Assembly: GCA_964545665.1 (NCBI GenBank)
Contig: CAZJGF010000002.1
Span: 1 to 38,061 of the forward strand
DNA: 38,061 nucleotides
DNA from: an uncultured Dehalococcoidales bacterium
Lineage (GTDB): Bacteria; Chloroflexota; Dehalococcoidia; GIF9; AB-539-J10
Reading direction: 5' to 3'
Numbering within the stretch: the first letter of the stretch is position 1; every line of letters starts with the position of its first letter. Below are positions 5,694 through 36,765 of this stretch, in pieces. The position numbers and the translations under genes are program-made. The notes below the pieces were generated by a model. It did not search any database, was not told the origin of the DNA, and worked only from the letters and a program-made list of their open reading frames with translations.

Positions 5694-5697
5694 GCTG

Positions 5698-8306: not shown

Positions 8307-8789
8307 TCAACGCAACAGGGCACGGTGCGCCCAGCCGATCTCCTCCAGGACAAGATTTATAACTTCTGGGACAGTCTCTGTTGCCTTTGCTGTCATTTCT
8401 TCGGTAAACTCAGTCACCTGTCCAACCCCTATAGCAAATATCACCATTTCTTTTGGCATTTGATTTGCTGCAAATCTCCGGCCAAACTCAATTGCAGTGG
8501 CGAAGTTCATGCCATGCGGCCAACTGGTCTGATCCACCGTGTTCACCAAATCTTCGAGCCGCAGCTTATATATTCCACCTATGTCTCCACTCCCAGTCTC
8601 AATTGCATCAATTATGATTACCTTGTCGTATCCAGCGATGTTTTCCAACAAACCTAAGCCACTTGTGTCGGCGTCCATCACATCAATCTTCTCGTCGTTA
8701 ATCCTTTTGGCCAACTCCTGAGCAACGTGGACGCCTATGCCATCATCTCCCAAGATTGCGTTTCCTATACCCAGAATAAGCGTCTTCAC
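8307..8789 (-). CDS. [NiFe]-hydrogenase maturation endopeptidase (second copy)
   Basis: 160 aa, MKTLILGIGNAILGDDGIGVHVAQ ... IIIDAI. Immediately downstream of the mvhA-like gene. Confidence 0.85.
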   Translation of the reverse strand: MKTLILGIGNAILGDDGIGVHVAQELAKRINDEKIDVMDADTSGLGLLENIAGYDKVIIIDAIETGSGDIGGIYKLRLEDLVNTVDQTSWPHGMNFATAIEFGRRFAANQMPKEMVIFAIGVGQVTEFTEEMTAKATETVPEVINLVLEEIGWAHRALLR

Positions 8790-8795
8790 TTCAGT

Positions 8796-12170: not shown

Positions 12171-13277
12171 TTACCCGACGGCCGCGAATTCCTCCGGCCT
12201 GAATGTAGTAAGCGGGAGCCCCTCCTCCATATCTTTCCCTGGAAGATAACCATAAGCTTTCTGAACCGATTCGGCTACTCTCAAGGAAATGGCCCACAGC
12301 GGAATACTGGCGGGACACACATCAGAACACATACCACATCCCACACACGATGTGCTTACGTGGGATAGCCTCACCAGGTGGTAGAATATCGTGTCAGGAA
12401 AAGCCTCCACACTTCCCCTTCTTTCTAGCTGTGTTGCGTAGTAAACCGCATCATGTTCACTAGCCTCACTGTCGAAAAAGCATAAGTGGCAATAACAGAT
12501 GGGGCAGACCTTGCTGCAGTTGTGGCAGCCTATGCATTTGCTGAAGGCCTTGTTCAGTTCATCAATACCAAGGTTCCTTATTTCAGTTTCATCAAACAGT
12601 TTCTGCTTCTCACTCTCTCTCTGGCCCCTTATTCGTTCCATTGCTCCAGAATCGAACTCTTCTTCAGTGAACTCTCCCGACATACCTTCAAGCAAGTTCT
12701 CCCCTCTGTCAGTGTTGAGAAGTATCACCGTTTCTCTGTCAATGTCCTTGTTTCCCAGTAAGGACACGGTGATATCAGCAGTGTAAGGTATAAAATGCTC
12801 ACATGCCTTACAGGCAGGCCTTATCCCAGGACTCACTTCACCTTGTTTGACCGCTTCCCAGTATTGAGGTAGCTTTTCCTCAATCTTATCCTCGAGTGCC
12901 AGTTCCAATGGGTAGACTCCGCCACAGGTTGAGCTTATGAGTAACAGGTTGTCAGTGCTCCCCTGCTGCCGCTTCACCAGCTCTACGAATGCTCTTAATT
13001 CGCAAGGTCTTAGCACCACCGCAATCGGTTCAGTGGCTGCTTCCCTTAGAGTAAGAAGGGATAGCAACTTGCCGCTGTTTACCGGCATTAGAGGATACAG
13101 CGGCCGGGCATAGTCGAGTTCATCAGGACTGGAAATAAGGGAGTAAGCCACAGCCCCATTCTCACCGATCTTCCTCAAAGTCAAAACCCCTTCCACCTTG
13201 CCGTTCTCTAGGAGGAATTTGGCCATTTCTTTCACGCTTTGCTCTGGGCTTTCGCTCAACCTTAAGACCCTAGGCAT
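12171..13277 (-). CDS. Fe-S protein of the FlxB/FlxC / AsrA / sulfhydrogenase-beta (HydB) type
   Basis: The track ORF extends to 13343, but the ATG at 13275-13277 has AAGGAG 7 nt upstream and overlaps the upstream stop by 8 nt (ATGCCTAG). Motifs: VVLRPCELRAFVELVK, CIGCHNCSKVCPICYCHLCFFD, CVGCGMCSDVCPASIP. The family name is from memory. Confidence 0.55.
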   Translation of the reverse strand: MPRVLRLSESPEQSVKEMAKFLLENGKVEGVLTLRKIGENGAVAYSLISSPDELDYARPLYPLMPVNSGKLLSLLTLREAATEPIAVVLRPCELRAFVELVKRQQGSTDNLLLISSTCGGVYPLELALEDKIEEKLPQYWEAVKQGEVSPGIRPACKACEHFIPYTADITVSLLGNKDIDRETVILLNTDRGENLLEGMSGEFTEEEFDSGAMERIRGQRESEKQKLFDETEIRNLGIDELNKAFSKCIGCHNCSKVCPICYCHLCFFDSEASEHDAVYYATQLERRGSVEAFPDTIFYHLVRLSHVSTSCVGCGMCSDVCPASIPLWAISLRVAESVQKAYGYLPGKDMEEGLPLTTFRPEEFAAVG

Positions 13278-14427
13278 CTTGCTTCTCCTTGGCAGAAAAC
13301 ACTGAATGGGACTGCTCCACCTCCTGGAATTCGCCTTGCTCAAAAGTCGTTAACGGCAGAGCTTCGTCTATACTCCTACCAGATAGGTAACCGAAGGCCT
13401 CTTGGTTTCTATCACCAACTAGGCTGAAGATTTGCCCTACCGTGATATTCATGGGGCAGGCGTCCTCACACATCCCGCATGACACACAGGAGAGAGACAT
13501 ATGTAACATACGTCCAATATGGAAAAACAGAGTATCGCTGGGAAGCTTCACCACACCTCTTGCCTTTGCCCTCGTAAGGTAATCTTCAAAATTGAATTTC
13601 ATTTTGTCCGAATCGAAATGACACTGGCGGCAGTAACATATGGGGCAGACCCTCATACAGTTGTGGCAGTTTATGCATCTACTAAAGCTTTCTAGTAGCC
13701 TGTCTATACCCTCAATCTCGCTTCTTAGCCCGTTGTGAGACTCGTTCCTTTTCTGCTTTCTTTCCTGAGTCAGCCTCTCCACTCCACTTTCCCAACTCGA
13801 TATATTGTCCTCCATTGAAAGACCGAGCTTGCTCAAGACACTTTCGCCTTTACCGCTGCTGGGGATAAGGACCATAGTGCCATCCTTTGCACCCAAGGTT
13901 CCTACATGCAAGTCTTCAGCACCCGTGGTAGAGAATCTGTCACATATGTTGCACACTGGCCGCATAGGTTCACTATTCCAGTTCCGGGAAGCATCTCTGA
14001 ACGTCCTATCACCGTTTTCGGCGCTCGTGAAATAGTCAGATAGAGGCATTACTCCCGGGCAGTCCACAGTCACAAGGATTATGTCCTCCAGGTTTGCCTG
14101 TCCAAGCTTAGCCAGTTCAACTGTCGCCCTTGCCTCGCAGGGTCGCATCACAGCAGCAATGCTCTTGTTCCCTTTACCACGTCTGGTAATGCTAGAAATG
14201 GCTCTGGCTCCCTGAACTGGCATAATTGGAGGTAACGGAGACGCTGCTTCAAGAAGCGCCTCATCTCGGATCAGTGAGTAGGCGACTGAATCTCCTGCCG
14301 ACACCCTAGTTGGGATGAGGACAGCGTCAAAACAACCTTGGCTTAATGCTTGCTTCATAAAGTCAAGGACCCCTCTTTCCACATCCCCTTCTGACAGGTA
14401 GATTGTTCCCTTCCGAGTAGGTGTCAC
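13270..14427 (-). CDS. Fe-S protein of the FlxB/FlxC / AsrA / HydB-beta type (paralogue of 12171-13277)
   Basis: Motifs AAVMRPCEARATVELAKLGQ, CINCHNCMRVCPICYCRQCHFD, CVSCGMCEDACPMNI. GAGGAG lies 7 nt upstream of the GTG at 14425-14427; the alternative GTG start at 14442 is the one used by the track. Confidence 0.55.
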   Translation of the reverse strand: MTPTRKGTIYLSEGDVERGVLDFMKQALSQGCFDAVLIPTRVSAGDSVAYSLIRDEALLEAASPLPPIMPVQGARAISSITRRGKGNKSIAAVMRPCEARATVELAKLGQANLEDIILVTVDCPGVMPLSDYFTSAENGDRTFRDASRNWNSEPMRPVCNICDRFSTTGAEDLHVGTLGAKDGTMVLIPSSGKGESVLSKLGLSMEDNISSWESGVERLTQERKQKRNESHNGLRSEIEGIDRLLESFSRCINCHNCMRVCPICYCRQCHFDSDKMKFNFEDYLTRAKARGVVKLPSDTLFFHIGRMLHMSLSCVSCGMCEDACPMNITVGQIFSLVGDRNQEAFGYLSGRSIDEALPLTTFEQGEFQEVEQSHSVFSAKEKQDA

Positions 14428-14476
14428 GTTACAACTCCTCACATGTTCCCAATAGTTTGCTCATAAGCCCACATAC

Positions 14477-16174
14477 TTACCTTACTAGTTCCACAACTTC
14501 TTGATAGATCTGCGGGAAGCCAAAATTCTTTACACTGGCAGCTCCAGAGGGACAAGTAGCAGCACAGACCCCGCATCCATGACACAAAGCTTCGTTCACC
14601 ACTGCAATTCTCCTCACTTCGTCAAAGCTGATGGCAGAGTAAGGGCAGACTGAGATACACATTTTGCATCCAGTGCAGAAAGTCTCCGAAATTTCAGAGG
14701 TTCTCACTTCCAACTCCAACTTTCGGCCTGGAACAAGGGATGAGAGTATCTTACCTGCTGCTGCCTCTGATTGAACTATCGTCTCCGAGATATTCTTTGG
14801 CCCCTGGGCACACCCGACCACAAATACTCCCTCCACAGAAGACGCCACTGGACCCAGCAACTGGTGCTCTGCAACAGGGAAACCCTCCTCGTCCAGAGGG
14901 ATACCAAGCATTTCAGCGAACCTATTAGTATCACCGCTGGGTTCCATCGCCGGCACAAGGATTACCATATCTACTGCAAGCTCCTCTTCCGAACCGTTTT
15001 CAGTTTCGTATTTCACAGCTATTGCCTTGGTATTTTGGGTAACCGTAGTCTTCGCAGCGCGTACAAAGTTGATCCCTAAGTCCTTTGTCTCTTCGTAGAA
15101 CTTCTGGTAGGACTTCCCTGGAATGCATAGGTCTGAGTAGAGTTGAGATACCTTTACGTCGGGAAGCTGGGACTTCAACATCCTGGCAAATTTAAGTGAA
15201 TACACGCAGCACACCTTGGAACAATAGCCCTTCTCTTCTCGCCCAACACAATGGATAATAGCCACAGATTCAGGACTCTTGCCGTTTTTGAGCAGAATCT
15301 TCCCCCCACTAGGTCCGCTTGGCATATTCATCTGCTCAAATTCCAAGCTCGTATAGACATCATCACGCTTTCCGTACCCATATTGAGGGAGACCCGTTGG
15401 GTCCATCAAGTCGAAGCCGGTAGCTAAGATGACTGCTCCCACGCTTAGATTCCGCTCCCCATTTTCCCCTTTCTTCGTTACTTTTGCCTCAAAATTGCCA
15501 AAGAAGCCCAAGATTTGCTCAACCTCACTATCAGTAAGCTCTTCGATATTCTTGGCTCCTAGCAGTCTCTTCACTTCTTTTTCTATCAATACTGAGCCAG
15601 AATCCATAGCGGTAAACAGCTTGTCAAACTCCTTTACTTTGCCTCCCAAAGAAGGACTCTTCTCAACCAGATAGACCCTTCTGTCTGGGGAACCAAGCAG
15701 CTGGCTAGCCTTAATTCCGGCAATGCCACCGCCGATTATCAGCACATCGGGACAAACGTCCATCTCCTTCTTTTCCAGAGAAACTTGCCAGCGAACTCTA
15801 CTGATAGCGGCTCTTATTTGCCTTATTGCCTTTTCTGCAGCCTCTTCCTTGTCTGAGGTGACCCAGGCACATTGTTCCCTGATATTCACCATCTGCAATA
15901 GGTAGGGGTTGAGACTAGCTTCCTCACACACATTCATAAAAGTCATTTCGTGCTGCTTAGGAGAACAGGCTGCAAGCACCAAATGGGTCAAGTCATGCTC
16001 CTTGATGCTTTGCTTTAGGAATTCCTTCCCAGCCTCAGAACACAAGAGCCCGTATTTCTCGACAATTGCGACATCACGAAGCGGCGAAACAGCTTCAATT
16101 ACTCTATCAATATTCACATTGTCGGCTATATTAGTGCCACACTCGCATACATATACGCCTATCCTTTTTCCCAT
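14477..16174 (-). CDS. hdrA: HdrA-like flavoprotein: N-terminal [4Fe-4S] domain + TrxR-like FAD fold + C-terminal 2x[4Fe-4S] ferredoxin, but no inserted ferredoxin domain
   Basis: 565 aa. IGVYVCECGTNIA, VLIIGGGIAGIKAS, IIHCVGREEKGYCSKVCC, C-terminal CTGCKMCISVCP...CHGCGVCAATCP. The segment where HdrA normally has TFPTNDC..C plus the inserted ferredoxin is replaced by Cys-free sequence. Confidence 0.8.
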   Translation of the reverse strand: MGKRIGVYVCECGTNIADNVNIDRVIEAVSPLRDVAIVEKYGLLCSEAGKEFLKQSIKEHDLTHLVLAACSPKQHEMTFMNVCEEASLNPYLLQMVNIREQCAWVTSDKEEAAEKAIRQIRAAISRVRWQVSLEKKEMDVCPDVLIIGGGIAGIKASQLLGSPDRRVYLVEKSPSLGGKVKEFDKLFTAMDSGSVLIEKEVKRLLGAKNIEELTDSEVEQILGFFGNFEAKVTKKGENGERNLSVGAVILATGFDLMDPTGLPQYGYGKRDDVYTSLEFEQMNMPSGPSGGKILLKNGKSPESVAIIHCVGREEKGYCSKVCCVYSLKFARMLKSQLPDVKVSQLYSDLCIPGKSYQKFYEETKDLGINFVRAAKTTVTQNTKAIAVKYETENGSEEELAVDMVILVPAMEPSGDTNRFAEMLGIPLDEEGFPVAEHQLLGPVASSVEGVFVVGCAQGPKNISETIVQSEAAAGKILSSLVPGRKLELEVRTSEISETFCTGCKMCISVCPYSAISFDEVRRIAVVNEALCHGCGVCAATCPSGAASVKNFGFPQIYQEVVELVR

Positions 16175-26375: not shown

Positions 26376-26830
26376 ACCGCTACTTCTTCCCTCCTTAAAG
26401 CTGAAAAGGGTGAGGGGCCCAGTTTCTTAAGTTGGTCGACAAATTCCTCAACTACTCTGGCAAACACTGTTCCCTCAGAAGTAGATATCATTTCACGCCT
26501 CAGCCTTTCATCCTCTAAGCCAAGGGTGTGGACTAGCCTCTTTAGCTTGGCGAACATGGCATCACACTTTACCGGCCCATCAATGTAATGGCAGTCGGTG
26601 TATTTACACCCAGCGACTATAACTCCATCAGCTCCTCTTTCAAAGGCTCTAAGGACATAGTCAGGATTTATCATTCCACTGCACATTACCCTTGCAATAT
26701 AAACATTGGGAGGGTATTGGACCCGGCTTGTGCCGGCCAAATCAGCTGCAGCGTAAGTACACCAGTTGCAGGCAAAAGCAATAATCTGCGGCTCAAATTC
26801 AGCCACGGTAAGCCTCCAGTAAGCCATCAA
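26372..26830 (-). CDS. mvhD: MvhD, copy 4
   Basis: 152 aa. FACNWCTYAAADLAG, VMCSGMI, AGCKYTDCHY. Start is TTG at 26830 or ATG at 26827; it overlaps the hdrL 3' end by ~30 nt. Confidence 0.85.
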   Translation of the reverse strand: MMAYWRLTVAEFEPQIIAFACNWCTYAAADLAGTSRVQYPPNVYIARVMCSGMINPDYVLRAFERGADGVIVAGCKYTDCHYIDGPVKCDAMFAKLKRLVHTLGLEDERLRREMISTSEGTVFARVVEEFVDQLKKLGPSPFSALRREEVAV

Positions 26831-29800
26831 CCAAGCTATCTATTTCCTGCATATTGAAATGCCTGATTGACATTGCTCCCGTCGGGCAAACAACGGCACA
26901 CGCCCCACATCCTTTACACAGGGCTTCATTTACGCTGGAGACCAAAAAAGTCCCATCCTTGCTAATAATCGTGGGAGCGTGGAAGGTGCAAATTTCCTCA
27001 CAGCGTCCACATCCATGACAAATGCTTTCATCCACTTGGGCTATGGCTGCCTCAGTGGTTACCTTGCCTCTGCTTATTAACGACAAAGCTTTGGATGCTG
27101 CGGCAGAAGCCTGGGCCACAGTATCAGGGATGTCCTTCGGTCCGGCACAGCAGCCAGCGATGAAAACTCCGTCTGTGGGCGTGTTTACCGGAGCAAGCTT
27201 GGGATGCGTTTCCAAGAAGAAGCCATCGGCTCTCTGACCTATGGTAAAACGACTGGCGATATCGGCTGCATCAGACCGAGCTTGCAGAGCAGCACAGAGG
27301 ATAACCATATCCACCGGGACACGGATCATCCTCCCCAATAAGGTATCCTCAGCCAAGGCAACTAATTTCCCTCTCTCCTCTTCACTTATGGCCTGATCGG
27401 TTATCTTTGCCACCTTGCCTCGGATAAAATTGACTCCCATTTCCGAAACGTGCTGGTAGAATTCCTCATAGGCTTCTCCAAAGCACCTCATGTCAATATA
27501 GAATTCATATACATCGGCCTTGGTAAACTCTTTTATCAGCTCTGCATACTTGAGACCATACATGCAGCAAACCCTGGAGCAGTACTCATGGTAGTTTTTG
27601 TCTCGACTGCCGACACAGTGTACTATGGCTACACTTCCCGGTTCTCTGCCATCCTTAAGTTGAATTCGCCCCTGAGTTGGCCCGCCAGCACACGTTATCC
27701 TCTCAAATTCAAGTCCGGTTAGAACATTATCATACTTCTTATACCCGTATTGAGTCATGACACTGGGATCAAACTGGTCATAGCCAGTAGCCAGAATGAT
27801 TGAGCCTACCTCTACCTCAGCAAACTCCTCTTCCATGCCATGGTTAATCGCCCCTTGCTCACAGACCTTCAAGCACTCCAAACATTCCGAGCATACGCCA
27901 CAGTTGAGACAGCGTTTAGCCTCCTCTACGGCTGTTTCTTCGTCAAAGCCTTGTTCAACCTCAGCAAAGGAGCTTTTTCTCTGGTCAAGGCTAAGCAGCG
28001 GCATGCTGGCTCTTGCCTTTGGTTTGACTCCTTCCGTCGATACCTGTTCTACCTTTTTGGACGCTATTTGTCTTCCCTCGGTTAGGCTAATACCTTTCAG
28101 ATATCGATCGATAGAAATAGCTGCCTCTTTGCCGGCGGCGATGGCTGCAATTACGTCACCGGGGCCGGAGACCGCGTCGCCACCGGCGAAAACGCCATGG
28201 ATGTTTGTTTGCAAGGTAGGAGGGGCGACTTCAAGGGTGCCCCAACCAGTATAGTCCAATTCTTTAGGCAGCATTGTCTTATCCACAGCCTGACCAACAG
28301 CGATGATAAGATTGTCCACATCCATGGTGAACTCTGAGCCTTTGATGGGTACCGGACGGTTACGGCCGCTAGCATCAGGCGTGCCCAACTCCATCCTGAT
28401 ACACTCAATAGCTGTCAATTGACCATCCTCGGATAGGATTTTAACTGGCCCCGCCAGGAAGTGGATCTTGACTCCTTCTCGCTTGGCTTCCTCAACCTCG
28501 GTCCCGATAGCAGGCATTTCAAGCTGAGAGCGGCGATAGACTACAGTCACCTCTTTAGCCCCAAGGCGTGAAGCTAATCTAGCAGCATCGATAGCGGCGT
28601 TGCCGCCACCAATGACTACCACCCGCTCCCCTAAACTAATCTTCACGCCAGAATTTGCCATTCTGAGAAAGTCGAGGGCATGGATTACTCCGCCTGTTTC
28701 TTCACCAGAGACTCCTGTCTTTTGGCTTTCCTGACAACCGTTGCCTAGTAAAATGGCTGTATATCCCTGGTTGAAGATCTCGCCGATGTCTTTAACTGGC
28801 GTATTTGTCCTGATCTCAACCCCCAGTTCTTGTATGTAATTTATCTCGTTATCCACTATTTCTTTGGGCAATCTGTATGCGGGGATGCCATACCTTAGCA
28901 GGCCACCTGGCTGAGGAAGTGCCTCGAACACAGTGACTGCATAACCCTCCCTAACCAAATCGTAAGCACAGGCAAGTCCGGCAGGGCCAGAGCCAACAAT
29001 AGCCACTTTACCCTCTTTTGTCCTTTCAACTGGAGCTGCTCTTTCCCTCCTGAGCCTCAGCTCATAATCAGCAATGAAGCGCTTCAGGCTTCGAATGGCG
29101 ATGGATTCGTCAAACCGCCCTCGCTCGCAGTCCAGTTCACAAGGATGCGTACAGACCCGTCCAACAACCCCGGCAAAAGGCATTGTCCTTCTGACTACTT
29201 CAAGGGCTTCTTTGAACTTGCCCTGGGAAATAAGTGCGACATAGCCTTGAGCATTGACTCCAGCGGGACAAGCAATGCGGCACGGCGCGGTGCCTCTCTT
29301 GTCAATGGCAAAAGCGGCAGGGACAGCTTGGGGGAGGGGAAGATAAGCTGCCTTTCTCATGTGCAGGCCCATTTCAAACTCGTCAGGCACCTCAACAGGA
29401 CATACTTTGGCGCATTCCCCACATGAGTTACATTTAACAACGTCCACATACCTGGGCTTCTTCCTCACTTTGACTTTGAAATTGCCGATATAGCCTGAAA
29501 CCTCTTCTACTTCGCTAGAGGTCATTAATTCGATGTTAGGGTGATGACCGACGTCGGTCATCTTAGGTGTGAGAATGCATTCCGAACAGTCCAAAGTAGG
29601 GAAAGTCCTGTCAAGCTGAATCATATGTCCACCAATGGATGGTTCCCGTTCCACTACATAGACTTTCTTGCCCCCATCAGCGATATCTAAAGCAGCCTGA
29701 ATTCCAGCGATGCCGCCGCCCACAACCAAGACATTAGGATTCACTGGAACTTCCTTAATCTCCAGAGGCTCATGCCAGTAAACGCGCCTTATTGCAGCGC

Positions 29801-30167
29801 GTACAAGAGCCTTGGCCTTCTCTGTAGCTCGCTTCTTGTCTGCAGCATGGGGCCAAGAACAGTGCTCCCTGATATTGGCATGCTCATATAAGTAAGGATT
29901 TAACCCGGCATCTTGGCAAGCTTTGCGGAACGTAGGTTCATGCATCCTTGGTGAGCAGGAAGCAACCACAACTCGATTGAGCCCTAGCTCTTTGATATCA
30001 TTTTTGATGAGATCCTGCCCGGGATCCGAGCACATATACCTGTAGTCACGCGAAATCACTACATTAGGCAAGGTTGTCGCATATTTGACCACCTCCTCAC
30101 AATCCACTGTACCGGCAATATTTAATCCACAGTGGCAAACGTATACTCCGATCTTTACCTCTTCCAT
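26799..30167 (-). CDS. hdrL: Large HdrA-type protein (HdrL-like): complete HdrA with a GltD/NfnB/SudA-type NAD(P)H:FAD module inserted in the inserted-ferredoxin domain
   Basis: 1122 aa. HdrA parts: IGVYVCHCGLNIA, VLVVGGGIAGIQAA, TFPTLDCSECILTPK, CNSCGECAKVCP, [insert], CLNCGVCSECLECLKVC, VHCVGSRDKNYHEYCSRVCC, C-terminal CHGCGRCEEIC...CKGCGACAVVCP. The insert (aa ~290-750, nt ~27918-29300) reads CRIACPAG...GRVCTHPCELDCERG, KVAIVGSGPAGLACAYDL, RVVVIGGGNAAIDAAR, GVFAGGDAVSGPGDVIAAIAAGKEAA. Confidence 0.8.
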   Translation of the reverse strand: MEEVKIGVYVCHCGLNIAGTVDCEEVVKYATTLPNVVISRDYRYMCSDPGQDLIKNDIKELGLNRVVVASCSPRMHEPTFRKACQDAGLNPYLYEHANIREHCSWPHAADKKRATEKAKALVRAAIRRVYWHEPLEIKEVPVNPNVLVVGGGIAGIQAALDIADGGKKVYVVEREPSIGGHMIQLDRTFPTLDCSECILTPKMTDVGHHPNIELMTSSEVEEVSGYIGNFKVKVRKKPRYVDVVKCNSCGECAKVCPVEVPDEFEMGLHMRKAAYLPLPQAVPAAFAIDKRGTAPCRIACPAGVNAQGYVALISQGKFKEALEVVRRTMPFAGVVGRVCTHPCELDCERGRFDESIAIRSLKRFIADYELRLRRERAAPVERTKEGKVAIVGSGPAGLACAYDLVREGYAVTVFEALPQPGGLLRYGIPAYRLPKEIVDNEINYIQELGVEIRTNTPVKDIGEIFNQGYTAILLGNGCQESQKTGVSGEETGGVIHALDFLRMANSGVKISLGERVVVIGGGNAAIDAARLASRLGAKEVTVVYRRSQLEMPAIGTEVEEAKREGVKIHFLAGPVKILSEDGQLTAIECIRMELGTPDASGRNRPVPIKGSEFTMDVDNLIIAVGQAVDKTMLPKELDYTGWGTLEVAPPTLQTNIHGVFAGGDAVSGPGDVIAAIAAGKEAAISIDRYLKGISLTEGRQIASKKVEQVSTEGVKPKARASMPLLSLDQRKSSFAEVEQGFDEETAVEEAKRCLNCGVCSECLECLKVCEQGAINHGMEEEFAEVEVGSIILATGYDQFDPSVMTQYGYKKYDNVLTGLEFERITCAGGPTQGRIQLKDGREPGSVAIVHCVGSRDKNYHEYCSRVCCMYGLKYAELIKEFTKADVYEFYIDMRCFGEAYEEFYQHVSEMGVNFIRGKVAKITDQAISEEERGKLVALAEDTLLGRMIRVPVDMVILCAALQARSDAADIASRFTIGQRADGFFLETHPKLAPVNTPTDGVFIAGCCAGPKDIPDTVAQASAAASKALSLISRGKVTTEAAIAQVDESICHGCGRCEEICTFHAPTIISKDGTFLVSSVNEALCKGCGACAVVCPTGAMSIRHFNMQEIDSLVDGLLEAYRG

Positions 30168-30185: not shown

Positions 30186-31334
30186 CTACATTGCCTCCTG
30201 AACTAATTCTGTAATATCCTTGATTTCAATAGTTTCGCCCTTATCCACTCTCAACTGACTATCTTTCAACATGCACATACAATAAGGACAGGCAACAGCT
30301 AATACCTCGGCTCCAGTTGCCAGAGCTTGTTGTAATCTAAGGTCGGCAAATCTTTCCTCTCTCCTGACACCCATCCATATGCCTCCCCCTCCGCCACCAC
30401 AACAAAGACTGTTTTCCCCGAAATCCGACATTTCAACCAGCTCGAGACCAGGAATGCTCCTTAGGACCTCCCGAGGCTCATCATATATGCCGTTATGCCG
30501 ACCAAGGTAGCATGGATCATGATATGTAACCCTCTTATTCAGTTCCTTGGTAGGCTTTATCCTCTGCTCCTTAATGAGTTCTAATAGAAGCTGGGTAGAA
30601 TGAATCACTTCAAATTTGCCTCCGAACTCCGGGTATTCATTTTTGAAAGTGTGATAGCAATGGGGCGAAGAAACAAGGATTTGCTTGACGCCGCTCTCAA
30701 CAAAAGCAGCAATATTGTTCCTTGCTAGCATTTCGAATACGTCTTCATTTCCCAACTTACGGGTGCTCTCACCACAGCAATTTTCTTTACTGCCCAAGAT
30801 GCCAAAATCCACTTGCGCCTTTTTCAGGATATCCACTGTAGCGAGGGCTATCCCCCTCTCCGCCGGTTCATATATGGAGAAGCAACAAGGGAAAAACGAT
30901 AGTGCAGTGCCCGGACCAGATTTCTTCACTCCCAAACCCTTAGCCCAGTCATCCCGCTTTCCCGGCTCCTGACCGAATGGATTGCCCGCACCAGCGATAT
31001 TCTTGACTGTGATTCGAAGGGCATCAGGAACAGCGCCAACGCCTAAACTAACTACAGCTCGGCGCAACGCCCTCATAATGTCGATTATCTCTACGCCACG
31101 AGGGCAGCTCTGGACACAAGCCCGACAAGTGGCACAAAGCCACAGCTCATCACTCTCAAAATCTGTCGCGCCAAGCTGGGCCTCGTGAATAATACGGCGA
31201 ACAATAAAGCTTCGAACCAGATTCCAGGGACAATTAGCAGTGCAAATGCCACATTGGTAACACAATCTCAGAGGGTCACCACCAGCCTCTAGTATCACGT
31301 TTGTGGCTTCTTTGTAAGGAGCTAGCACCTGCAT
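30186..31334 (-). CDS. HdrD-like protein (HdrC-type ferredoxin + double CCG domain), first gene of the long operon
   Basis: 382 aa. CYQCGICTANCP, CATCRACVQSCP, ENCCGES, SLCCGGGGG, ACPYCMCM. Weak SD; the start is taken from the track. Confidence 0.75.
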   Translation of the reverse strand: MQVLAPYKEATNVILEAGGDPLRLCYQCGICTANCPWNLVRSFIVRRIIHEAQLGATDFESDELWLCATCRACVQSCPRGVEIIDIMRALRRAVVSLGVGAVPDALRITVKNIAGAGNPFGQEPGKRDDWAKGLGVKKSGPGTALSFFPCCFSIYEPAERGIALATVDILKKAQVDFGILGSKENCCGESTRKLGNEDVFEMLARNNIAAFVESGVKQILVSSPHCYHTFKNEYPEFGGKFEVIHSTQLLLELIKEQRIKPTKELNKRVTYHDPCYLGRHNGIYDEPREVLRSIPGLELVEMSDFGENSLCCGGGGGGIWMGVRREERFADLRLQQALATGAEVLAVACPYCMCMLKDSQLRVDKGETIEIKDITELVQEAM

Positions 31335-31366
31335 GGAACTTTGGCCCTGGTCCTATAAGAATCAGA

Positions 31367-31410
31367 CAAAAAATGGAGGAGTAGCTATCTTGAAAACCTT
31401 GTAGCTACCC
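31367..31410 (-). terminator. Hairpin plus T6 tract in the leader of the hdr operon (terminator/attenuator candidate)
   Basis: Minus strand reads GGGTAGCTA-(14 nt)-TAGCTACTCC: 9 bp including one G.U, with the final C of the second arm left unpaired. It is followed by TCCATTTTTTG and lies ~33 nt upstream of the ATG at 31334, downstream of the candidate promoter. Confidence 0.3.
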
Positions 31411-31446
31411 TTTTTCTCCACAGAATGAATTGAAGCACGGCCAGTG

Positions 31447-31476
31447 AGTATAACAAAATATTACTGGTGAAAGCAA
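31447..31476 (-). promoter_or_regulatory. Candidate sigma-70-type promoter with extended -10 for the 16-gene hdr operon
   Basis: Minus strand reads TTGCTT (31471-31476), 18-nt spacer, TGT-TATACT (-10 at 31447-31452). It has the same TGnTATACT form as the candidate at 11792-11800. Confidence 0.35.
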
Positions 31477-31741
31477 ATTCTCGGCGATAGTATGGTTATA
31501 GATGTTTCAAGAACCCTTCTAATGGAGCCCCCTGATCATCTAGGATTAGGAGCATAAGGGAAACTCCTGATTATGCCGCTATTCTGAGGCTCTGCGTGGG
31601 CCAAACCAGAATCGGTCTAAAACAAAGCAGTTGTTATTCTAAGGGAAGAGAGCTAGGTGTCTCACTAAGAATACATCTCCCCCCTTTTGTGCCACTGGAA
31701 CTTTCTGGCTAACTCTTTTACTACAACCCTAACCAACTTGG

Positions 31742-32761
31742 CTATGCCTCAGCCCTTTGTCCCTTTTTACGCAGTGCCTCTCGGCGAGCTGCTAGCTTAG
31801 TCAATTTTTGGTCTAAAGCGTCCTGCATAAACTGGCCAAATTCACAAGCTGAGCATTGGAACAGACGGGTGCAAAGTCGATAAGAGACGTCACCCTTTAG
31901 AGCATAACGGCAAAGTCTCTGACTTCCCGGCAGTTCCTTAAACCTCTCCAGAGCCTTATCGATTTCCGGAGCTTCGCCAGCGGCTATTTTCTCTTGCATC
32001 ATCTGGTCAAACTCGCAGGTAAGGCAGTCATAATTCCGGGTGCAGACCCTGTAAGAGACCATGCCCATCTTTGACCAGACGCACTCATTGACTTTCACCA
32101 CCTGTTCGACAGCAGCCTCATCTTCAGGCACCTCAACCCTTGGCTTGGCCAGTTCTTCCTTCGTCCTTTGGATCCAAACTCGGGTTTCCATGTGGCCCGG
32201 AGCGATATGGAGAATAGACTGGAATTCCCTCAACGCTTTCTCATAGCGGCCTGCCCTGAAGCAAGTTTTGCCTTGCTCGAGGTAAGCAGGGATTTCTTCC
32301 TCAGTTATGGCTATGGTTTGCTCAACCTCGGCTTCTTCGACCACTGAAGCTTCCGTTATCGCTGCTTCAACCTTCGCCTCCTCAGGTTTTACCTCTACCT
32401 GAATAGGGCCGAGAACCTCCTGAATTGATTTTTCCAGAGCATCGGGGGCAAAGGGCTTAACCAAGTAATCAACTGCTCCGATTTTCATTGCCTCTACTGC
32501 TGTCTCCATCGAAGGATAAGCGGTGATGATGATTCCTTTAAGCTTTGGGTTTTGCGCTGTGGCCTCTTTCAGCAGCTCAAGCCCATTTTTCCCTGGCAGC
32601 CTTAGATCAAGAACGACAACGCCAAATCCCCTCTTTCCAATTTCTTGCAACGCCTCTTCGCCTTCCTGGGCAGTTTCCACCTCATAGCCCCTATCCTTAA
32701 GCCAGTCTCGAAGCGACTCGCGCATGATGGCTTCATCTTCAACGATCAATACTGATTTCAT
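31742..32761 (-). CDS. Response-regulator receiver protein with a TPR-like motif and a duplicated C-x12-C-x5-C-x2-C-E-F C-terminal module (no recognisable DNA-binding domain)
   Basis: The ATG at 32759-32761 has GGAGG 8 nt upstream (the track starts 9 nt earlier at a GTG). REC hallmarks: VEDE, VLDLRLPG (acceptor Asp), ITAYPS, VKPF. TPR-like AYLEQGKTCFRAGRYEKALREFQSILHIAPGH. The two Cys repeats are ECVWSKMGMVSYRVCTRNYDCLTCEFDQMMQ and RLCRYALKGDVSYRLCTRLFQCSACEFGQFMQ. Confidence 0.85.
   Translation of the reverse strand: MKSVLIVEDEAIMRESLRDWLKDRGYEVETAQEGEEALQEIGKRGFGVVVLDLRLPGKNGLELLKEATAQNPKLKGIIITAYPSMETAVEAMKIGAVDYLVKPFAPDALEKSIQEVLGPIQVEVKPEEAKVEAAITEASVVEEAEVEQTIAITEEEIPAYLEQGKTCFRAGRYEKALREFQSILHIAPGHMETRVWIQRTKEELAKPRVEVPEDEAAVEQVVKVNECVWSKMGMVSYRVCTRNYDCLTCEFDQMMQEKIAAGEAPEIDKALERFKELPGSQRLCRYALKGDVSYRLCTRLFQCSACEFGQFMQDALDQKLTKLAARREALRKKGQRAEA
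32360..32761 (-). repeat. REC-plus-linker coding repeat, copy A (paralogous to 34629-35030)
   Basis: Protein segments are collinear and highly similar, including the linker VLGP(I/V)QVE(V/I)(K/R)PEE(A/T)KVEAA. In a 61-nt stretch aligned by eye (32701-32761 vs 34970-35030), 53/61 positions match. Confidence 0.8.
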
Positions 32762-32819
32762 TTCTTCCACCTCCTTTCACCCTTTGGTGTCGCAGTCTTT
32801 CAGCCAACTCCTTTCGTTT

Positions 32820-35030
32820 TCACATCAGCACTCCCTCAATTTCAGCCGTAATCTGCTCAGTGGTAGAGTTACTGATGGTAATGGCCTCACTAGGGCAGGC
32901 AGCACTACATGCACCGCATCGCTTACATTTAAGGTCATCTATAACTGATACTACCCCTTTATTAGATTCCACTAGTTTGATGGCGTCATAGCTACATACG
33001 GCGGCACAAATTCCACAGCCACTGCACACATCCTGGTTGACTTCAATTTCTGCTATCTCAGGCTGAACTCCCAGTGCCACACATGCTTTACAGCTCTTAC
33101 ATGGACCGCAGTCCAGACACCTCCTGGCCTCTTCCACTGCTTCTTCCAAGGTGAACCCCTTTTTAAACAGTTCAAAGTTCATCCTCTCTAGTAACCATTC
33201 CGATTCAGGCTGAGGCTTGTATTCCATAAGCTTGGGGATAGCAGCGGCTTCATACTGCTTCTCTCTACCCAGCTTCAGGTCTTCACCCCTCAGGTAGCGG
33301 TCGATGGACTCCGCTGCTATCACCCCATCTCTCATTGCTTCTGCGGCAAAACCTACTCGTCTCACATCGCCGCCGACAAAAACCCCTTCCTTACGATTGC
33401 TCATGAGAGTGAGGGGATCGATATCGAGCCTGCCTCTCTCATTCACCAGCCCTTCTTGGGAAAAGAATGTCCGCTCTGGACCTTGCCCTATAGTAACCAG
33501 CAGCACATCGCCCTCAAGATATATTGCAGCGCTGTGGTCAAACTTAGGATTAAATCCGCTTTCGTCAAAGACCGAGGTGCATCGGGGACACTTTATTTTC
33601 TTGAATTTCCCATCCTCTCCGATTATCTCTTCTACACCTCGGGAGTAGTATATCTTTAATCCTTCCTCAGTAGCGCCTTCTATCTCCTCCACATCGGCCG
33701 GAATCCCATCCTTGGAAGATTTATCTTCATTTTCGAGGCAGACAATGGAAACATCTGCACCAAGCCGCCGTGCACTCCTTGCTGCATCAAATGCCACATT
33801 GCCACCGCCTATCACTATCACTCTCTCCTCTCGGAAGAGTTGCCGAAGGAGCTCTTGACAAAGCCTGTTTTGGTTCAGCTCGAAAAGGAGATGCAAACCA
33901 AAGGCGACTCCGCCGAGGTCTGCTCCATTTATTAGCTGCCCCTCCATACTCAGGGGTCTGGGAGAAGGAGTACCAGTAGCAATGAACACAGCTCGGTACC
34001 CCTCACTCTTAAGGTCATCCAGCGTTTCCCCGCCATTGCCCATTGTTGCTCCAAACTCAACATCAATATGGGCAATCCTTGCCAGATTATCTAAAGTGTT
34101 ATCTATAATATTGGTGGGAAGACGATATTGGGGGATATATCTCAACGCGCCTCCCAATTGTGAGCTCCTTTCCAGAATAGTCACCCGATAGCCCTTTTTG
34201 CTCAGTTTGTAAGCACACATCAGCCCTCCGGGGCCCCCACCGATCACCGCAACCTTTTCTCTGGTAGGATAGGGAAGTGGCGGTTTGGTTTCTAGATATG
34301 GAAGATAATGATCGGTGAGGAATCGTTTAAGCATCGTTCTTCTTATTGCCCCCGTCTGGTCTTTGTAATTGCATTCCTTCTCACAAAGCCCACAAATATA
34401 GCTGCATACCGTGAATAGAGGATTCTTGTCATAAATTTCATCACCTATCTCTATTATCTGGTTGTAAGCTCTCTCAGCATCCAAAGGAAGATACGCTATC
34501 ATTGTGTTAGTGCGCTGAATAGGCTCTCCGATAGGACAAGCTATCTGACAAGGAGGCAGACATACTTTCCCGGTTGCCTCGTCAATCACCTCCTCAACCA
34601 CCTCCTCAACTGCTGGAACTTCCACCACGGCTGCCTCAACCTTGGTCTCTTCAGGTCTTATCTCCACTTGAACCGGGCCGAGAACCTCCTGAATTGGTTT
34701 TTCCAGGGCATCAGGGGCAAAAGGCTTGACTATGTAATCGACTGCCCCGATTTTCATCGCCTCCACTGCAGTCTCAACCGAGGGATAAGCAGTAATAACA
34801 ATTCCCTTAAGCTTAGGGTTCTGCACCGTGGCCTCCCTCAACACCTCGAGCCCGTCTCTTCCTGGTAGCCTCAGATCGAGAACCGCAACACCAAATTCTC
34901 TCTCCCCAATCTTCTGCAATGCCTCTTCACCTTCTTCGGCAGTGTCCACTTCGTAGCCATCTTCTTTAAGCCAATCTCGGAGCGATTCTCGCATGATGGC
35001 CTCATCCTCAACGATCAATATTGGTTTCAT
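32820..35030 (-). CDS. Receiver (REC) domain fused to a GltD/NfnB/SudA-like FAD/NAD(P)H oxidoreductase and a C-terminal 2x[4Fe-4S] ferredoxin domain
   Basis: The ATG at 35028-35030 has AGGAGG ~9 nt upstream (the track starts at TTG 35060). REC: IVEDE, VLDLRLPG, ITAYPS, VKPF. Then CLPPCQIACPIG, CSYICGLCEKEC, KVAVIGGGPGGLMCAYKL, RVIVIGGGNVAFDAARSA, GVFVGGDV...AMRDGVIAAESIDRYL, RRCLDCGPCKSCKAC, CSGCGICAAVCS...CKRCGACSAACP. Confidence 0.85.
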   Translation of the reverse strand: MKPILIVEDEAIMRESLRDWLKEDGYEVDTAEEGEEALQKIGEREFGVAVLDLRLPGRDGLEVLREATVQNPKLKGIVITAYPSVETAVEAMKIGAVDYIVKPFAPDALEKPIQEVLGPVQVEIRPEETKVEAAVVEVPAVEEVVEEVIDEATGKVCLPPCQIACPIGEPIQRTNTMIAYLPLDAERAYNQIIEIGDEIYDKNPLFTVCSYICGLCEKECNYKDQTGAIRRTMLKRFLTDHYLPYLETKPPLPYPTREKVAVIGGGPGGLMCAYKLSKKGYRVTILERSSQLGGALRYIPQYRLPTNIIDNTLDNLARIAHIDVEFGATMGNGGETLDDLKSEGYRAVFIATGTPSPRPLSMEGQLINGADLGGVAFGLHLLFELNQNRLCQELLRQLFREERVIVIGGGNVAFDAARSARRLGADVSIVCLENEDKSSKDGIPADVEEIEGATEEGLKIYYSRGVEEIIGEDGKFKKIKCPRCTSVFDESGFNPKFDHSAAIYLEGDVLLVTIGQGPERTFFSQEGLVNERGRLDIDPLTLMSNRKEGVFVGGDVRRVGFAAEAMRDGVIAAESIDRYLRGEDLKLGREKQYEAAAIPKLMEYKPQPESEWLLERMNFELFKKGFTLEEAVEEARRCLDCGPCKSCKACVALGVQPEIAEIEVNQDVCSGCGICAAVCSYDAIKLVESNKGVVSVIDDLKCKRCGACSAACPSEAITISNSTTEQITAEIEGVLM
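34629..35030 (-). repeat. REC-plus-linker coding repeat, copy B (paralogous to 32360-32761)
   Basis: See copy A. The plus-strand shadow ORFs 32724..32948 and 34993..35307 both begin MMASSSTIN because they are antisense to the shared VEDEAIM codons. Confidence 0.8.
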
Positions 35031-35145
35031 TGCCTTTGCCTCCTCTTTCTTGTTTGTCAAGATTGCTTGTCTGTCTATCTTTCAGCTCCTTTCATCTTTT
35101 AGTATGCCAACTTCTTCCCTTTGGGTTGTTCCCACCTTGCTGATA

Positions 35146-35161
35146 TGCAATTTTCTTGCCA
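35146..35161 (-). promoter_or_regulatory. Sigma-54 (-24/-12) promoter upstream of the two REC genes
   Basis: Minus strand reads TGGCAAGAAAATTGCA, against the consensus TGGCACG-N4-TTGCA. GG and GC have the exact 10-nt separation, with one mismatch in the -24 hexamer. About 115 nt upstream of the ATG at 35030. Confidence 0.6.
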
Positions 35162-35194
35162 AAATAGAAAGCTACCCAAATTTTCTGGGTAGCT
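35161..35194 (-). terminator. Rho-independent terminator candidate after the EBP remnant
   Basis: Minus strand reads AGCTACCCA-GAAAATT-TGGGTAGCT: a perfect 9-bp stem with a 7-nt loop, followed by TTCTATTTT. The T-tract abuts the -24 element of the sigma-54 promoter. Confidence 0.5.
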
Positions 35195-35252
35195 TTTGTT
35201 GCCAAGGAAGACCAAAGACTTGTAATACTTTTGCAGCCTGTAAAGACATTGG

Positions 35253-35611
35253 TCACACAGTGTCTATTTTCTTTACGCCACGACCATTGCCTCTCGCCTT
35301 GTTGTAGAGTGTCATTCTGGTGATTCCTAAGATTCTAGCCGCCACGCTACAATTTCCTCCAGTTTCACAGAGGACATTCAATATATGGCTTTTCTCCACC
35401 CCTTTAGGGCCCCCCGCGGTACAGTTGCGCGAGCTGGCGGCATATTTTCATGAAGTGAATCGACAACTGTGACAAGGCCAGCTTCGGCTAGGATGGTTGC
35501 CCTTTCGATAGCATTTTCCAACTCACGAACGTTTCCCGGCCAGTCATAATCGAGCAGAAACTCTGTTACCTTTCGGGAGAATCCAGCGACCTCTTTTTGA
35601 TACTCCGAGGA
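35253..35611 (-). pseudogene. 3' remnant of a sigma-54 enhancer-binding protein (NtrC-family AAA+ activator), 5'-truncated and frameshifted
   Basis: Minus-strand translation gives [47 protein letters not shown].... After a -1 shift near the C6/G6 homopolymer at 35410-35415 it continues [37 protein letters not shown] (Fis-type HTH), with a stop at 35253-35255. An in-frame TGA at 35612-35614 and the rpoN-like stop at 35662 leave no room for Walker A/B. The track lists no ORF of 60 aa or more here on this strand. Confidence 0.7.
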
Positions 35612-35661: not shown

Positions 35662-36765
35662 CTAGTTCTTAGAGGAGTTCTTTCTCTTCCATGCTGGAGC
35701 TATCTTCAACTCCTTCCTTAGACTTGCTACCAAGCGGCGGGAAATAGAAACACCAAATGCTTCTTGCAACTTGTCCTTAATTGCTTCGTCCGATAGGGGC
35801 TCCGTCTCAGCTTCAAGGAAGCGTCTGACTAGTTCCTTCTTAAACCTTCTTGGTCGAGGGAAGAAATCCTTGAGGGCTTTCTCTTCGCCCCAGGGTGTGT
35901 CTAAGCTTCTGCCCCTGATGGCACGGCTAATTGAGCTTGGAACAACTTCAATCTTTTCGGCCAGCTCCCGTTGACTGAAGGGTAGAAGTGCTTTGGTATC
36001 ACCGGATTCGAAGTAGAGCGCTTGTTGTTCCACGATACCTTGCAGTATCCGAGTTATCGTGTCCTTACGGCTATTGATTAGCTCCAGTCTTTTGAATAGC
36101 TGCCTGATTTCCCCCACTTCAGCACCACCAATAGCTCCATTCCCTCTCAATTCCTCAAACCTTTCATAGTCAATCGAATATCTTCCCCGGGCAGAAGAAG
36201 GTGAGAAATAACCAATGACAAATCCCGCTGGCCCCCTTTCCACCGCGGCAACCTTGGAATAGCGAATTCCATGCTCCGGACTAAGTGCAGTGGGGTGACA
36301 GAACTCACTCATAATGGAGAACTCATCGACAAGGCTGTTTATTCTCCGAACCTCCGAAAGTTCTAGATTGCATTCTTGGGCTATCTTCTCCAGGCTTATT
36401 TCCTCTTCAGGATATAAGAAATATCGCTTAAAGTTTTCCAGCCCCAGTTTCTGTATCTGACGGACAACGTCTTCCTTATCTAGCAGAAGAGATTCGACGT
36501 GAGGAGATCCTGCGCCAACTACAATCTCCTCATTAAGCTGATAGAAACGAGACGAAATGTCTGTCTTAGGGTATTTCTGGTAGCGTACTATTTTCGCCTC
36601 CCGATATAACTTTTTGAATAGGGGACTATTTTCTAGCTCTCTGATGAGCCTGTTAAACTCGTCTTCAGGCATTTCCAGCAAACTGGCCTGTTCCAATCGG
36701 GCAATAAGTTTGAACTCTTGCCGCGCTTGCAGAGATTGTGTTTGCTGAATCTCCAACGTACCCAT
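35662..36765 (-). CDS. rpoN: Short, divergent sigma-54 (RpoN)-like protein
   Basis: 367 aa. Region-I-like Gln/Leu-rich N-terminus (QQTQSLQARQEFKLIARLEQASLLEMPEDEFNRLIRELENSPLF). DNA-binding region RKDTITRILQGIVEQQALYFESGDTKALLPFSQRELAEKIEVVPSSISRAIRGRSLDTPWGEEKALKDFF. RpoN-box-like ISRRLVASLRKELKIAPAWKRK, against the canonical ARRTVAKYRE. No SD before the ATG. Confidence 0.7.
   Translation of the reverse strand: MGTLEIQQTQSLQARQEFKLIARLEQASLLEMPEDEFNRLIRELENSPLFKKLYREAKIVRYQKYPKTDISSRFYQLNEEIVVGAGSPHVESLLLDKEDVVRQIQKLGLENFKRYFLYPEEEISLEKIAQECNLELSEVRRINSLVDEFSIMSEFCHPTALSPEHGIRYSKVAAVERGPAGFVIGYFSPSSARGRYSIDYERFEELRGNGAIGGAEVGEIRQLFKRLELINSRKDTITRILQGIVEQQALYFESGDTKALLPFSQRELAEKIEVVPSSISRAIRGRSLDTPWGEEKALKDFFPRPRRFKKELVRRFLEAETEPLSDEAIKDKLQEAFGVSISRRLVASLRKELKIAPAWKRKNSSKN

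Follow-up and report, generated by a model that had tools for sequence, protein, structure and literature searches.

A receiver protein with a new double four-cysteine output domain from a sigma-54 cassette of Dehalococcoidia

Tiered sigma-54 cascades are known from NtrBC acting on NifLA and from the H2-sensing HoxBC/HoxJ/HoxA system of Cupriavidus necator (formerly Ralstonia eutropha). Response regulators of the adaptor type, which have no DNA-binding domain, include RssB, CpdR, CheY and DivK; AmiR, EutV and NasT are REC-ANTAR antiterminators, and among Hdr-like enzymes DsrK works with the small protein DsrC. Here we describe a response regulator gene on a stretch of 38,061 nucleotides from an uncultured Dehalococcoidales bacterium (GenBank assembly GCA_964545665.1, contig CAZJGF010000002.1, positions 1 to 38,061 of the forward strand; the window). 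The gene lies at 31742..32761 on the (-) strand and encodes a receiver (REC) domain, a TPR-like unit and a pair of four-cysteine modules that we call the DM domain (double four-Cys module, a name coined in this analysis). Two published proteins are relevant to its setting: OrpR, a sigma-54 activator whose PAS domain carries a [4Fe-4S] cluster (PMC8359166), and LbpA, a GcvH-like lipoate-binding protein and essential partner of sHdr complexes (PMC6067878). The response regulator as such is of a known kind, while its output domain, the compact sigma-54 cassette to which it belongs and its link to one Hdr-like enzyme are not described in the databases and literature searched.

The coding sequence, taken from the list of open reading frames (ORFs), ends with a stop codon at 31742-31744 and can be read from a GTG at 32770, giving 342 aa, or from an ATG at 32761, giving 339 aa. 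The ATG is the likely start, because 339 aa equals the length of the metagenome proteins P0001 and P0002 and because the ribosome-binding site (RBS), AGGAGG, lies 8 nt before it. Residue numbers below follow the 342-aa GTG frame and are lowered by 3 for the ATG frame. A preliminary description of the same DNA had combined the two: its nucleotide start is that of the ATG frame and stands, while its residue numbers belong to the 342-aa GTG frame and need the same subtraction of 3. More than 120 homologues of the protein were found at 70% identity or above.

Residues 7-116 (32423..32752, (-)) matched the receiver family PF00072 of Pfam with E=1.3e-30 and 106 bits, against a cut-off of 30.2. The phospho-acceptor D55, the acidic pocket D12/E13, and T83 and K105 were invariant in 17 diverse REC-DM proteins; judged by the profile match and these residues, the protein is a member of the CheY-like receiver family. 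The receiver is followed by an acidic, Glu/Val/Ala-rich linker (residues 119-158, 32297..32416, (-); net charge -9, isoelectric point (pI) 4.1), whose length differs between homologues, and then by a TPR-like three-helix unit (residues 159-205, 32156..32296, (-)). The latter rests on sub-threshold TPR_14 and TPR_2 matches, the best in Pfam being TPR_14 with 21.7 bits against a cut-off of 23.5 over residues 162-197, and on an AlphaFold model of the unit with helices at 3-18, 22-35 and 40-53, about 1.5 repeats, at a predicted local distance difference test (pLDDT) of 83-95; many homologues have TPR_2 matches on record.

The two cysteine modules were located by regular expression. Module 1, C230-x12-C243-x5-C249-x2-C252-EFDQMMQ, covers residues 230-259 (CVWSKMGMVSYRVCTRNYDCLTCEFDQMMQ; 31994..32083, (-)) and module 2, C287-x12-C300-x5-C306-x2-C309-EFGQFMQ, residues 287-316 (CRYALKGDVSYRLCTRLFQCSACEFGQFMQ; 31823..31912, (-)). 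Between them runs a helical connector (residues 260-286, 31913..31993, (-)), defined from alignments and a model helix at 45-55, which ends in a conserved LPGxQR just before module 2. The protein closes with a basic C-terminal helix or tail (residues 319-342, KLTKLAARREALRKKGQRAEA; 31745..31816, (-); charge +5, pI 11), modelled by AlphaFold as a long helix, and Lys/Arg-rich tails are kept in distant REC-DM proteins. The pattern C.{12}C.{5}C..CEF.Q.MQ matched exactly twice, at the eight cysteines named in the preliminary description, and the order it had proposed, a receiver, an acidic linker, a TPR-like motif and two four-Cys modules, was borne out by Pfam, charge, model and regular expression. 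The modules are 48% identical to each other (BLASTP E=9e-12), and both were present in 141 of 188 retrieved relatives. Chance and a spurious ORF were rejected on the strength of the RBS, the depth of conservation and the statistics of the repeat.

The preliminary description had been unable to assign the cysteine region to a known DNA-binding or enzymatic family, and our searches led to the same result. Nothing in Pfam or NCBIfam scored above cut-off, the best match being zf-CHY with 17.3 bits against 31.3; phmmer and two profile searches against PDB sequences gave only matches at E>=0.08, and Foldseek of the confident DM model described below gave no match in the PDB or BFVD (E>=1.5). A well-known zinc-ribbon family of DNA-binding proteins, which would have contradicted that description, did not appear in profile and structure searches over residues 222-330. 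For the ferredoxin type, no Fer4 match and no CxxCxxCxxxCP were found in the protein, while neighbouring proteins match Fer4 often; for the WhiB/FNR type, C-x2-C-x5-C is absent from it and Pfam gave no match. An ANTAR domain was not matched at E<=1, and of an NtrC-family activator there was no AAA+ match, the NtrC, AtoC and ZraR models covering residues 1-135 (the REC part) only. Assignments as Zn-finger, zinc-ribbon, Fer4, WhiB or ANTAR were rejected for want of a match above cut-off. A literature search likewise returned no description of it. The DM domain is a new output domain, named in none of the databases and literature searched.

A first AlphaFold run with 21 close homologues gave the cysteine modules a pLDDT of only 45-60. 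When 72 diverse double modules were supplied, a single globular DM model was obtained (pLDDT 87.4, predicted template modelling score (pTM) 0.74), in which each module has Cys 1 and 2 on a short pair of strands and Cys 3 and 4 where a helix begins. The charge of the DM core is -1 in the target and ranges from -10 to +12 in the family, with a median of +1. Binding of Zn or of an Fe-S cluster, already suggested in the preliminary description, would fit the invariance of the eight cysteines across phyla. The anaerobe-only taxa and the C-x5-C-x2-C spacing may slightly favour Fe-S over Zn; we take this spacing to be reminiscent of adrenodoxin-type 2Fe-2S loops, as a lead only.

To place the domain in a wider frame, a 44-position profile of the single module was searched against 1.84 billion cluster representatives, which yielded 734 protein clusters at E<=1e-3 and 161 at E<=1e-10. 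The search of other proteins and their neighbourhoods for the motif, which the preliminary description had proposed, thus revealed a large family. Nearly all DM proteins have two modules, for nearly all of them spaced by 49-71 residues. In the 72 diverse double modules all eight cysteines were invariant and W8, G12 and Q89 nearly so, and column identity across phyla was about 40%. The family is accordingly defined by two C-x12-C-x5-C-x2-C-x-[FY] modules about 49-71 residues apart, eight invariant cysteines and W/G/R/Q signature positions. The target, which is the family seed, scored 158.7 bits over two domains and was the sole ORF of the window to match the profile.

The domain occurs in many architectures. 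Among the top 145 representatives, 40 have a C-terminal GcvH-like domain, 14 a REC domain and several a TPR, and many are stand-alone proteins of about 140 aa. P0193 carries a HisKA/HATPase kinase core behind TPR-DM, and in P0329 a HoxU/NuoG-like 2Fe-2S/4Fe-4S unit is inserted in the DM. The 114-aa fragment P0327 leads from the AAA-lid of an activator straight into DM module 1, at the place where HTH_8 normally sits, which is explained either by a genuine fusion of activator and DM or by a frameshift in the metagenome. The databases name DM proteins only as 'hypothetical protein' or, in Desulfacinum, Desulfosoma and Desulfococcaceae, as 'glycine cleavage system protein H'. Desulfobacterota proteins of about 300 aa with the latter name (P0195, P0199, P0201, P0217 and others) consist of DM and a GcvH-like domain. 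DM-GcvH-like proteins are encoded, for example, at 8488-9405 of locus L005 and 7533-8450 of locus L095; there are several paralogues per locus, each adjoining a sigma-54 activator and kinase pair, and some begin with a conserved MKCPFLEE..YCKA.P. The lipoyl Lys is missing in 36 of 37 DM-GcvH fusion proteins when compared with an E. coli GcvH reference, and a role of these fusions as LbpA-like lipoate carriers was rejected on this ground. All named source taxa of DM proteins are anaerobes.

In order to learn how the gene is embedded in relatives, one genome per GTDB species was scanned for it, giving 80 loci (about 75 from metagenome-assembled genomes (MAGs) of Dehalococcoidia/Chloroflexota), and BLAST was used to compare their flanks with selected proteins of the window and of locus L002. 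REC-TPR-DM is encoded in 57 of the 80 loci, and an NtrC-type activator gene stands directly upstream of the DM gene in 50. The full order of compact sigma-54, kinase, activator and target was found in 35 loci and also in annotated metagenome contigs. The activator consists of REC, Sigma54_activat and HTH_8. The kinase is of the HisKA/HATPase type, and its N-terminal region has no assignment; sub-threshold matches to membrane-type DUF families are all that suggests a membrane-embedded N-terminus. At L001, a second kinase gene (12812-14773, (+)) with an N-terminal [FeFe]-hydrogenase-like domain (Fe_hyd_lg_C, Fer4) lies beside an NtrC-type activator gene. This domain suggests sensing of H2 or of redox state, and it is possible that the kinase senses H2 and feeds the same cassette.

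A canonical and nearly invariant sigma-54 promoter, TGGCAAGAAAATTGC, was seen at 43 of 47 cassette loci; its distance to the start of the target is mostly 60-100 nt. In relatives, a structure-conserved terminator separates activator and target, and TGGCAAGAAAATTGC follows it at once. The position of this promoter directly before the target gene indicates that the target itself is the local sigma-54 target. Activator genes also precede distant DM genes, in MAGs of WOR-3, Thermodesulfobacteriota, Syntrophobacteria and Eubacteriales, and two distant DM loci (L088 and L089) have canonical sigma-54 promoters; before the DM genes of Desulfobacterota the strict motif was not found, and L005 has only the variant TGGCAT-N5-TTGT. 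Our literature search found no mention of sigma-54 in Dehalococcoidia.

A second class of loci lacks the receiver. In 19 species (19 loci, L044-L076; for example L056, 9067-11827) such a TPR-DM protein, about 195 aa long, is encoded in fixed synteny, divergently from a NarL/GerE-type regulator and a HisKA_3 kinase and with an AIRS-domain gene after it. At L008 a gene for an antiporter-like membrane subunit precedes the REC-less TPR-DM gene. L012 has extra REC-only segments at 5664-6038 and 8754-9128 that are 80-82% identical to the target REC and interleaved between the activator gene, a REC-NfnB gene and the target gene; the unit of REC and linker has been tandemly amplified there.

The window itself has retained only part of the cassette. 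The first cassette gene encodes a compact sigma-54 homologue of 367 aa (35662..36765, (-); Pfam Sigma54_DBD, E=6e-24), in which Pfam matches the DNA-binding domain only, while the N-terminus is Region-I-like and the end RpoN-box-like by sequence. This gene is syntenic in at least 35 loci and is always the first of the Dehalococcoidia cassette. Directly after it the histidine kinase gene and most of the activator gene have been deleted: tblastn with the L002 activator recovered a frameshifted NtrC-type remnant (AAA+ lid and HTH_8; 35268..35605, (-)), 62-72% identical in two frames and without an intact ORF. The intrinsic terminator of the activator operon, a hairpin with a 13-bp stem and a T-run (35168..35196, (-)), abuts the sigma-54 promoter; its structure is kept while its sequence differs in relatives, which indicates covariation. 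The promoter is an exact match to TGGCAAGAAAATTGC at 35147..35161, (-). The motif TGGCA-N6-TTGC has six matches in the window, where 0.53 are expected by chance, and the five further ones lie in the NiFe-hydrogenase region (6494-6508, 7591-7605, 8454-8468, 9488-9504); they could be internal sigma-54 sites or an effect of composition.

Between this promoter and the target lies a gene for a REC-NfnB/GltD-like FAD/NAD(P)H Fe-S oxidoreductase of 746 aa (32820..35060, (-), Pfam/NCBIfam; likely ATG at 35030). Its REC is 84% identical to that of the target and the linkers are closely similar; by domain content it is a response regulator with a redox enzyme as its output. Only 49 nt separate the two genes, which are probably co-transcribed, and the window's sigma-54 promoter is predicted to drive them as a two-gene operon, REC-NfnB-like and REC-TPR-DM. 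The same gene order was found in the independent samples L092 and L093 and in L012, where the kinase and activator genes are still present. REC-NfnB genes occur at L012, L040, L068, L092 and L093. Since kinase and activator have been lost in the window, trans-acting copies would be needed for a cascade to operate here.

Downstream, the window has a gene for an HdrD-like CCG protein (30186-31334, (-); Pfam), called hdrD here, followed by one for an HdrA/NfnB-like fusion of 1122 aa (26799-30167, (-); Pfam) and an MvhD gene. An HdrD-like CCG protein gene is likewise next to the target, with HdrA-like and MvhD genes after it, in 15 of the 46 GTDB loci with enough downstream sequence. In seven other loci NuoE/NuoF-like genes begin 10-130 nt after the target; an eighth, L068, has this pair on the opposite strand, and in still other loci NiFe hydrogenase genes converge on the target. 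In relatives, a clear terminator (GGGGTCAG...CTGACCCC and a T-run) follows the target gene; the intergenic alignment places its counterpart in the window at 31643..31684, (-), where the hairpin is weakened (-16.9 kcal/mol).

A sigma-54 promoter was looked for between target and hdrD and none was found; there is instead a sigma-70-type promoter with a -35 TTGCTT, a 17-nt spacer and an extended -10 TGTTATACT (31447..31476, (-)). It belongs to a conserved block, TTGccT-N17-TGTTATACT across loci, which reads TTG..TT-N-TG.TATACT in 17 aligned loci. The leader behind it is about 105 nt long, with a hairpin and U-run about 35-40 nt before the hdrD ATG; in the window (31366..31435, (-)) folding gave a P1 hairpin at 31416-31435, a terminator-like hairpin at 31375-31419 and a T-run at 31368-31373. 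Where present, the unit of promoter and leader has a single copy in the locus, in every case ahead of hdrD (19 true matches). Besides the window, it was seen at L001, L002, L011, L013, L014, L017, L019, L023, L024, L029, L034, L041, L052, L090 and L091. Hairpin and U-run were found in most of 17 folded loci, clearly in about 13-15, with stem sequences that differ. These hairpins come from single-sequence folds, RNAalifold on a MAFFT alignment having misaligned the 3' arm and missed the stem, and the window hairpin alone is modest (-17.4 kcal/mol, z=-1.45). Rfam returned no family for the leader, with chance-level matches only. From its predicted fold, the hdrD leader looks like a candidate transcription attenuator.

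A single long run of redox genes occupies the minus strand (2131-31334). It holds four MvhD-like genes, several HdrA-like and HdrD-like genes, among them that of the 1122-aa HdrA/NfnB fusion, genes for an FdhA-like molybdopterin protein and FrhB-like proteins, two NiFe hydrogenases with maturation proteases, MetF/MetV-type methylene-tetrahydrofolate reductase genes and a DUF3786 gene; MoaA and MoaC genes lie on the plus strand at 178-2081. By gene content, the run looks like an electron-bifurcation island linked to the Wood-Ljungdahl pathway.

The association with Hdr is not confined to Chloroflexota. On Desulfobacterota contigs, genes for a PAS kinase and an NtrC-type activator diverge from a stand-alone DM gene and a DM-GcvH gene. 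At L095 (Desulfobacterota), the same neighbourhood encodes an HdrD-like protein 41% identical to that of the window over 370 aa and an HdrA/NfnB-like protein of 1124 aa, whose first 92 aa are 59% identical to the 1122-aa protein of the window. In two distant phyla, this one Hdr-like enzyme is thus accompanied by DM and by a sigma-54 activator. A literature search for a description linking GcvH to HdrA or to an enhancer-binding protein found none.

The reading that we favour, tentatively and with a probability of roughly 0.4, is that REC-TPR-DM is a second-tier, phosphorylation-gated, metal-binding adaptor or sensor that acts on protein partners. The cascade would serve energy enzymes linked to hydrogen, formate, NAD(P)H and ferredoxin. 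A signal, probably H2 or redox state, would activate the kinase, and the phosphorylated activator would open the sigma-54 promoter, so that REC-TPR-DM is made and, in the window, also its REC-NfnB-like paralogue. The same kinase would then phosphorylate D55 of the new REC-TPR-DM and thereby free the TPR-DM part, whose two Cys4 centres would hold metal (Zn or an Fe-S cluster). The freed part would dock on a protein partner, most likely the neighbouring HdrD/HdrA-NfnB, NfnB-like or NuoEF-like flavo-iron-sulfur enzymes or else the kinase/activator pair, and electron-bifurcating metabolism would be tuned post-translationally rather than through a classical DNA-binding domain.

The preliminary description had already thought of a possible redox- or metal-responsive adaptor acting through protein contacts. 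Several observations lead us to this reading. The fusion partners of DM, namely kinase core, REC, GcvH-like domain and activator, are typical of sensor and interaction modules, and so wide a range would be unusual in a DNA-binding domain. The protein has a TPR-like unit and a DM core of near-neutral charge, and a sister REC is attached to a redox enzyme; cassette and sigma-54 promoter recur in relatives, one of which has a kinase with an [FeFe]-hydrogenase-like sensor domain; the REC is intact, and the output matched no known domain. The gene is moreover co-transcribed with NfnB-like or NuoE/NuoF-like genes, and the link to Hdr is kept in Desulfobacterota. Some points weigh against it. Every step beyond the making of the gene from the sigma-54 promoter is one that we infer. 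The conserved basic tail and the terminator in the hdrD leader would fit a nucleic-acid-binding effector equally well. A terminator separates the target from hdrD, which makes the gene look more regulatory than structural, and hdrD is directly downstream in only about one third of the loci. The cascade as drawn, finally, cannot run in the window without trans-acting copies of kinase and activator.

Most response regulators bind nucleic acids, and DM with its basic tail may therefore be a new output of that kind, which, once phosphorylated, would bind the hdrD leader RNA (antitermination, as in REC-ANTAR proteins) or the hdrD promoter DNA. The setting speaks for this: in 17 loci a sigma-70-type promoter and a leader of about 105 nt with hairpin and U-run precede hdrD, and the place of hairpin and U-run shortly before the ATG implies that read-through must be controlled, while neither a sigma-54 promoter nor an Rfam riboswitch was found there; the target gene, predicted to be inducible, lies immediately upstream; and besides the conserved C-terminal tail, P0327 has DM at the usual place of the activator's helix-turn-helix (HTH). 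We nevertheless hold it to be somewhat unlikely. The DM core, close to neutral, differs greatly in charge across the family; among the fusion partners of DM are kinase cores and GcvH-like domains, beside which a binding to nucleic acids would be hard to explain; and hdrD with its leader is directly downstream in only 15 of 46 loci, the leader of L001 standing after the activator gene. There is also no ANTAR domain and no obvious alternative fold of an antiterminator, and the hairpin of the window is weak on its own (z=-1.45). If the protein instead only drained phosphate from the kinase and so shut the cascade, TPR-DM would be no more than a structural appendage stabilised by Zn, or would serve for dimerisation. 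Single-domain regulators that are induced and then exert negative feedback are well known, the target REC is NtrC-like in type, as is the REC of the activator that is predicted to induce it, and REC-only paralogues are interleaved at L012. A passive appendage, however, would not keep eight invariant cysteines and about 40% column identity across phyla, and DM is found again in 19 species where it has no REC, as well as in hundreds of further architectures, all of which makes such a phosphate sink the least probable of the explanations considered, and a very unlikely one.

An unlikely explanation, though less so than the phosphate sink, is that DM is a redox carrier. Electrons, or thiol/disulfide equivalents, would pass between its Cys pairs (or Fe-S clusters bound by these) and the enzymes encoded next to it, the HdrD-like CCG protein and the HdrA/NfnB fusion, much as DsrC works with DsrK or LbpA with sHdr, and the REC would set its availability by phosphorylation. 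DM genes do adjoin orthologous genes for HdrD-like and HdrA-like (about 1120 aa) proteins in two phyla; P0329 holds its HoxU-like 2Fe-2S/4Fe-4S unit within the DM, in a paralogue the REC is joined straight to an Fe-S flavoenzyme, and only anaerobes were found among the taxa. Many DM proteins have a GcvH-like domain as well, and the GcvH-like LbpA is essential to Hdr-like complexes (PMC6067878), but 36 of the 37 fusions lack the lipoyl Lys. Similarity to DsrC or to ferredoxin motifs is absent as well, and a stoichiometric substrate would be expected within the enzyme operon, whereas the target appears to be transcribed apart from the enzyme genes, from a regulatory promoter. A bolder form of this idea would make DM a new redox-active module (Fe-S or thiol/disulfide), the missing partner, substrate or redox sensor of the HdrD-like/HdrA-NfnB enzymes in anaerobes without DsrC; in the REC-fused form, phosphorylation would gate the bifurcating enzyme directly and not gene expression. 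We consider it slightly more doubtful than the simple carrier.

The adaptor or sensor that we favour would form part of a circuit that can be read from sequence: sigma-54, kinase, activator, sigma-54 promoter, novel regulator and an enzyme operon with an attenuator. This circuit bears on the control of electron-bifurcating enzymes of the Hdr/Mvh/Nfn type and on what bacterial Hdr-like enzymes act on. Should DM turn out to sense redox state, to act in antitermination or to be a partner of Hdr, two-component signalling would gain an output class that is new, and there would be a handle on the energy metabolism of the deep biosphere. In anoxic sediments, Dehalococcoidia rank with the most abundant bacteria, and most of the lineages that bear the cassette are uncultured.

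Compared with known systems, the locus comes close to NtrB/NtrC-type cascades, in that a kinase and an NtrC-type AAA+ activator work on a promoter of the form TGGCA-N6-TTGC, from which a further regulator is made. As in the Hox cascade, the genes around it are hydrogenase and redox genes, and the kinase of one relative has a hydrogenase-like sensor domain. It departs from these cascades in its second-tier product, which is a REC with a new Cys domain and not an activator or HTH protein, in its compact (367 aa), cassette-encoded sigma-54, and in the sigma-70-type promoter of the enzyme operon. With RssB, CpdR, CheY and DivK the protein shares a phosphorylatable REC, which here too would control protein contacts, and the lack of an HTH or enzymatic domain; its TPR-like unit and eight-Cys domain have no counterpart there, and the NCBIfam RssB matches on it cover the REC only. 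The REC-ANTAR proteins AmiR, EutV and NasT resemble it in that the regulator gene adjoins an operon with an intrinsic terminator in its leader; they differ in their ANTAR domain, which the target lacks, and in the two-hexaloop RNA motif, which was not seen here.

The Cys4 Fe-S redox sensors FNR, WhiB and OrpR, from anaerobes and actinobacteria, are comparable in having a small four-Cys motif in a regulator, in their occurrence in anaerobes and in a sigma-54 circuit that would answer to redox state. The spacing, however, is C-x2-C-x5-C in FNR and WhiB against C-x12-C-x5-C-x2-C here, and there is no similarity in sequence or fold. LbpA and the DsrC of the DsrC/DsrK pair are, like DM proteins, small proteins encoded beside Hdr-like genes, and many DM proteins have a GcvH-like domain. 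The DM proteins differ from them in that 36 of 37 fusions are without the lipoyl Lys and in having no DsrC-like C-terminal arm, and the protein of the window differs further from LbpA and from the DM-GcvH proteins in that it carries a REC and a TPR-like unit in place of the GcvH-like domain.

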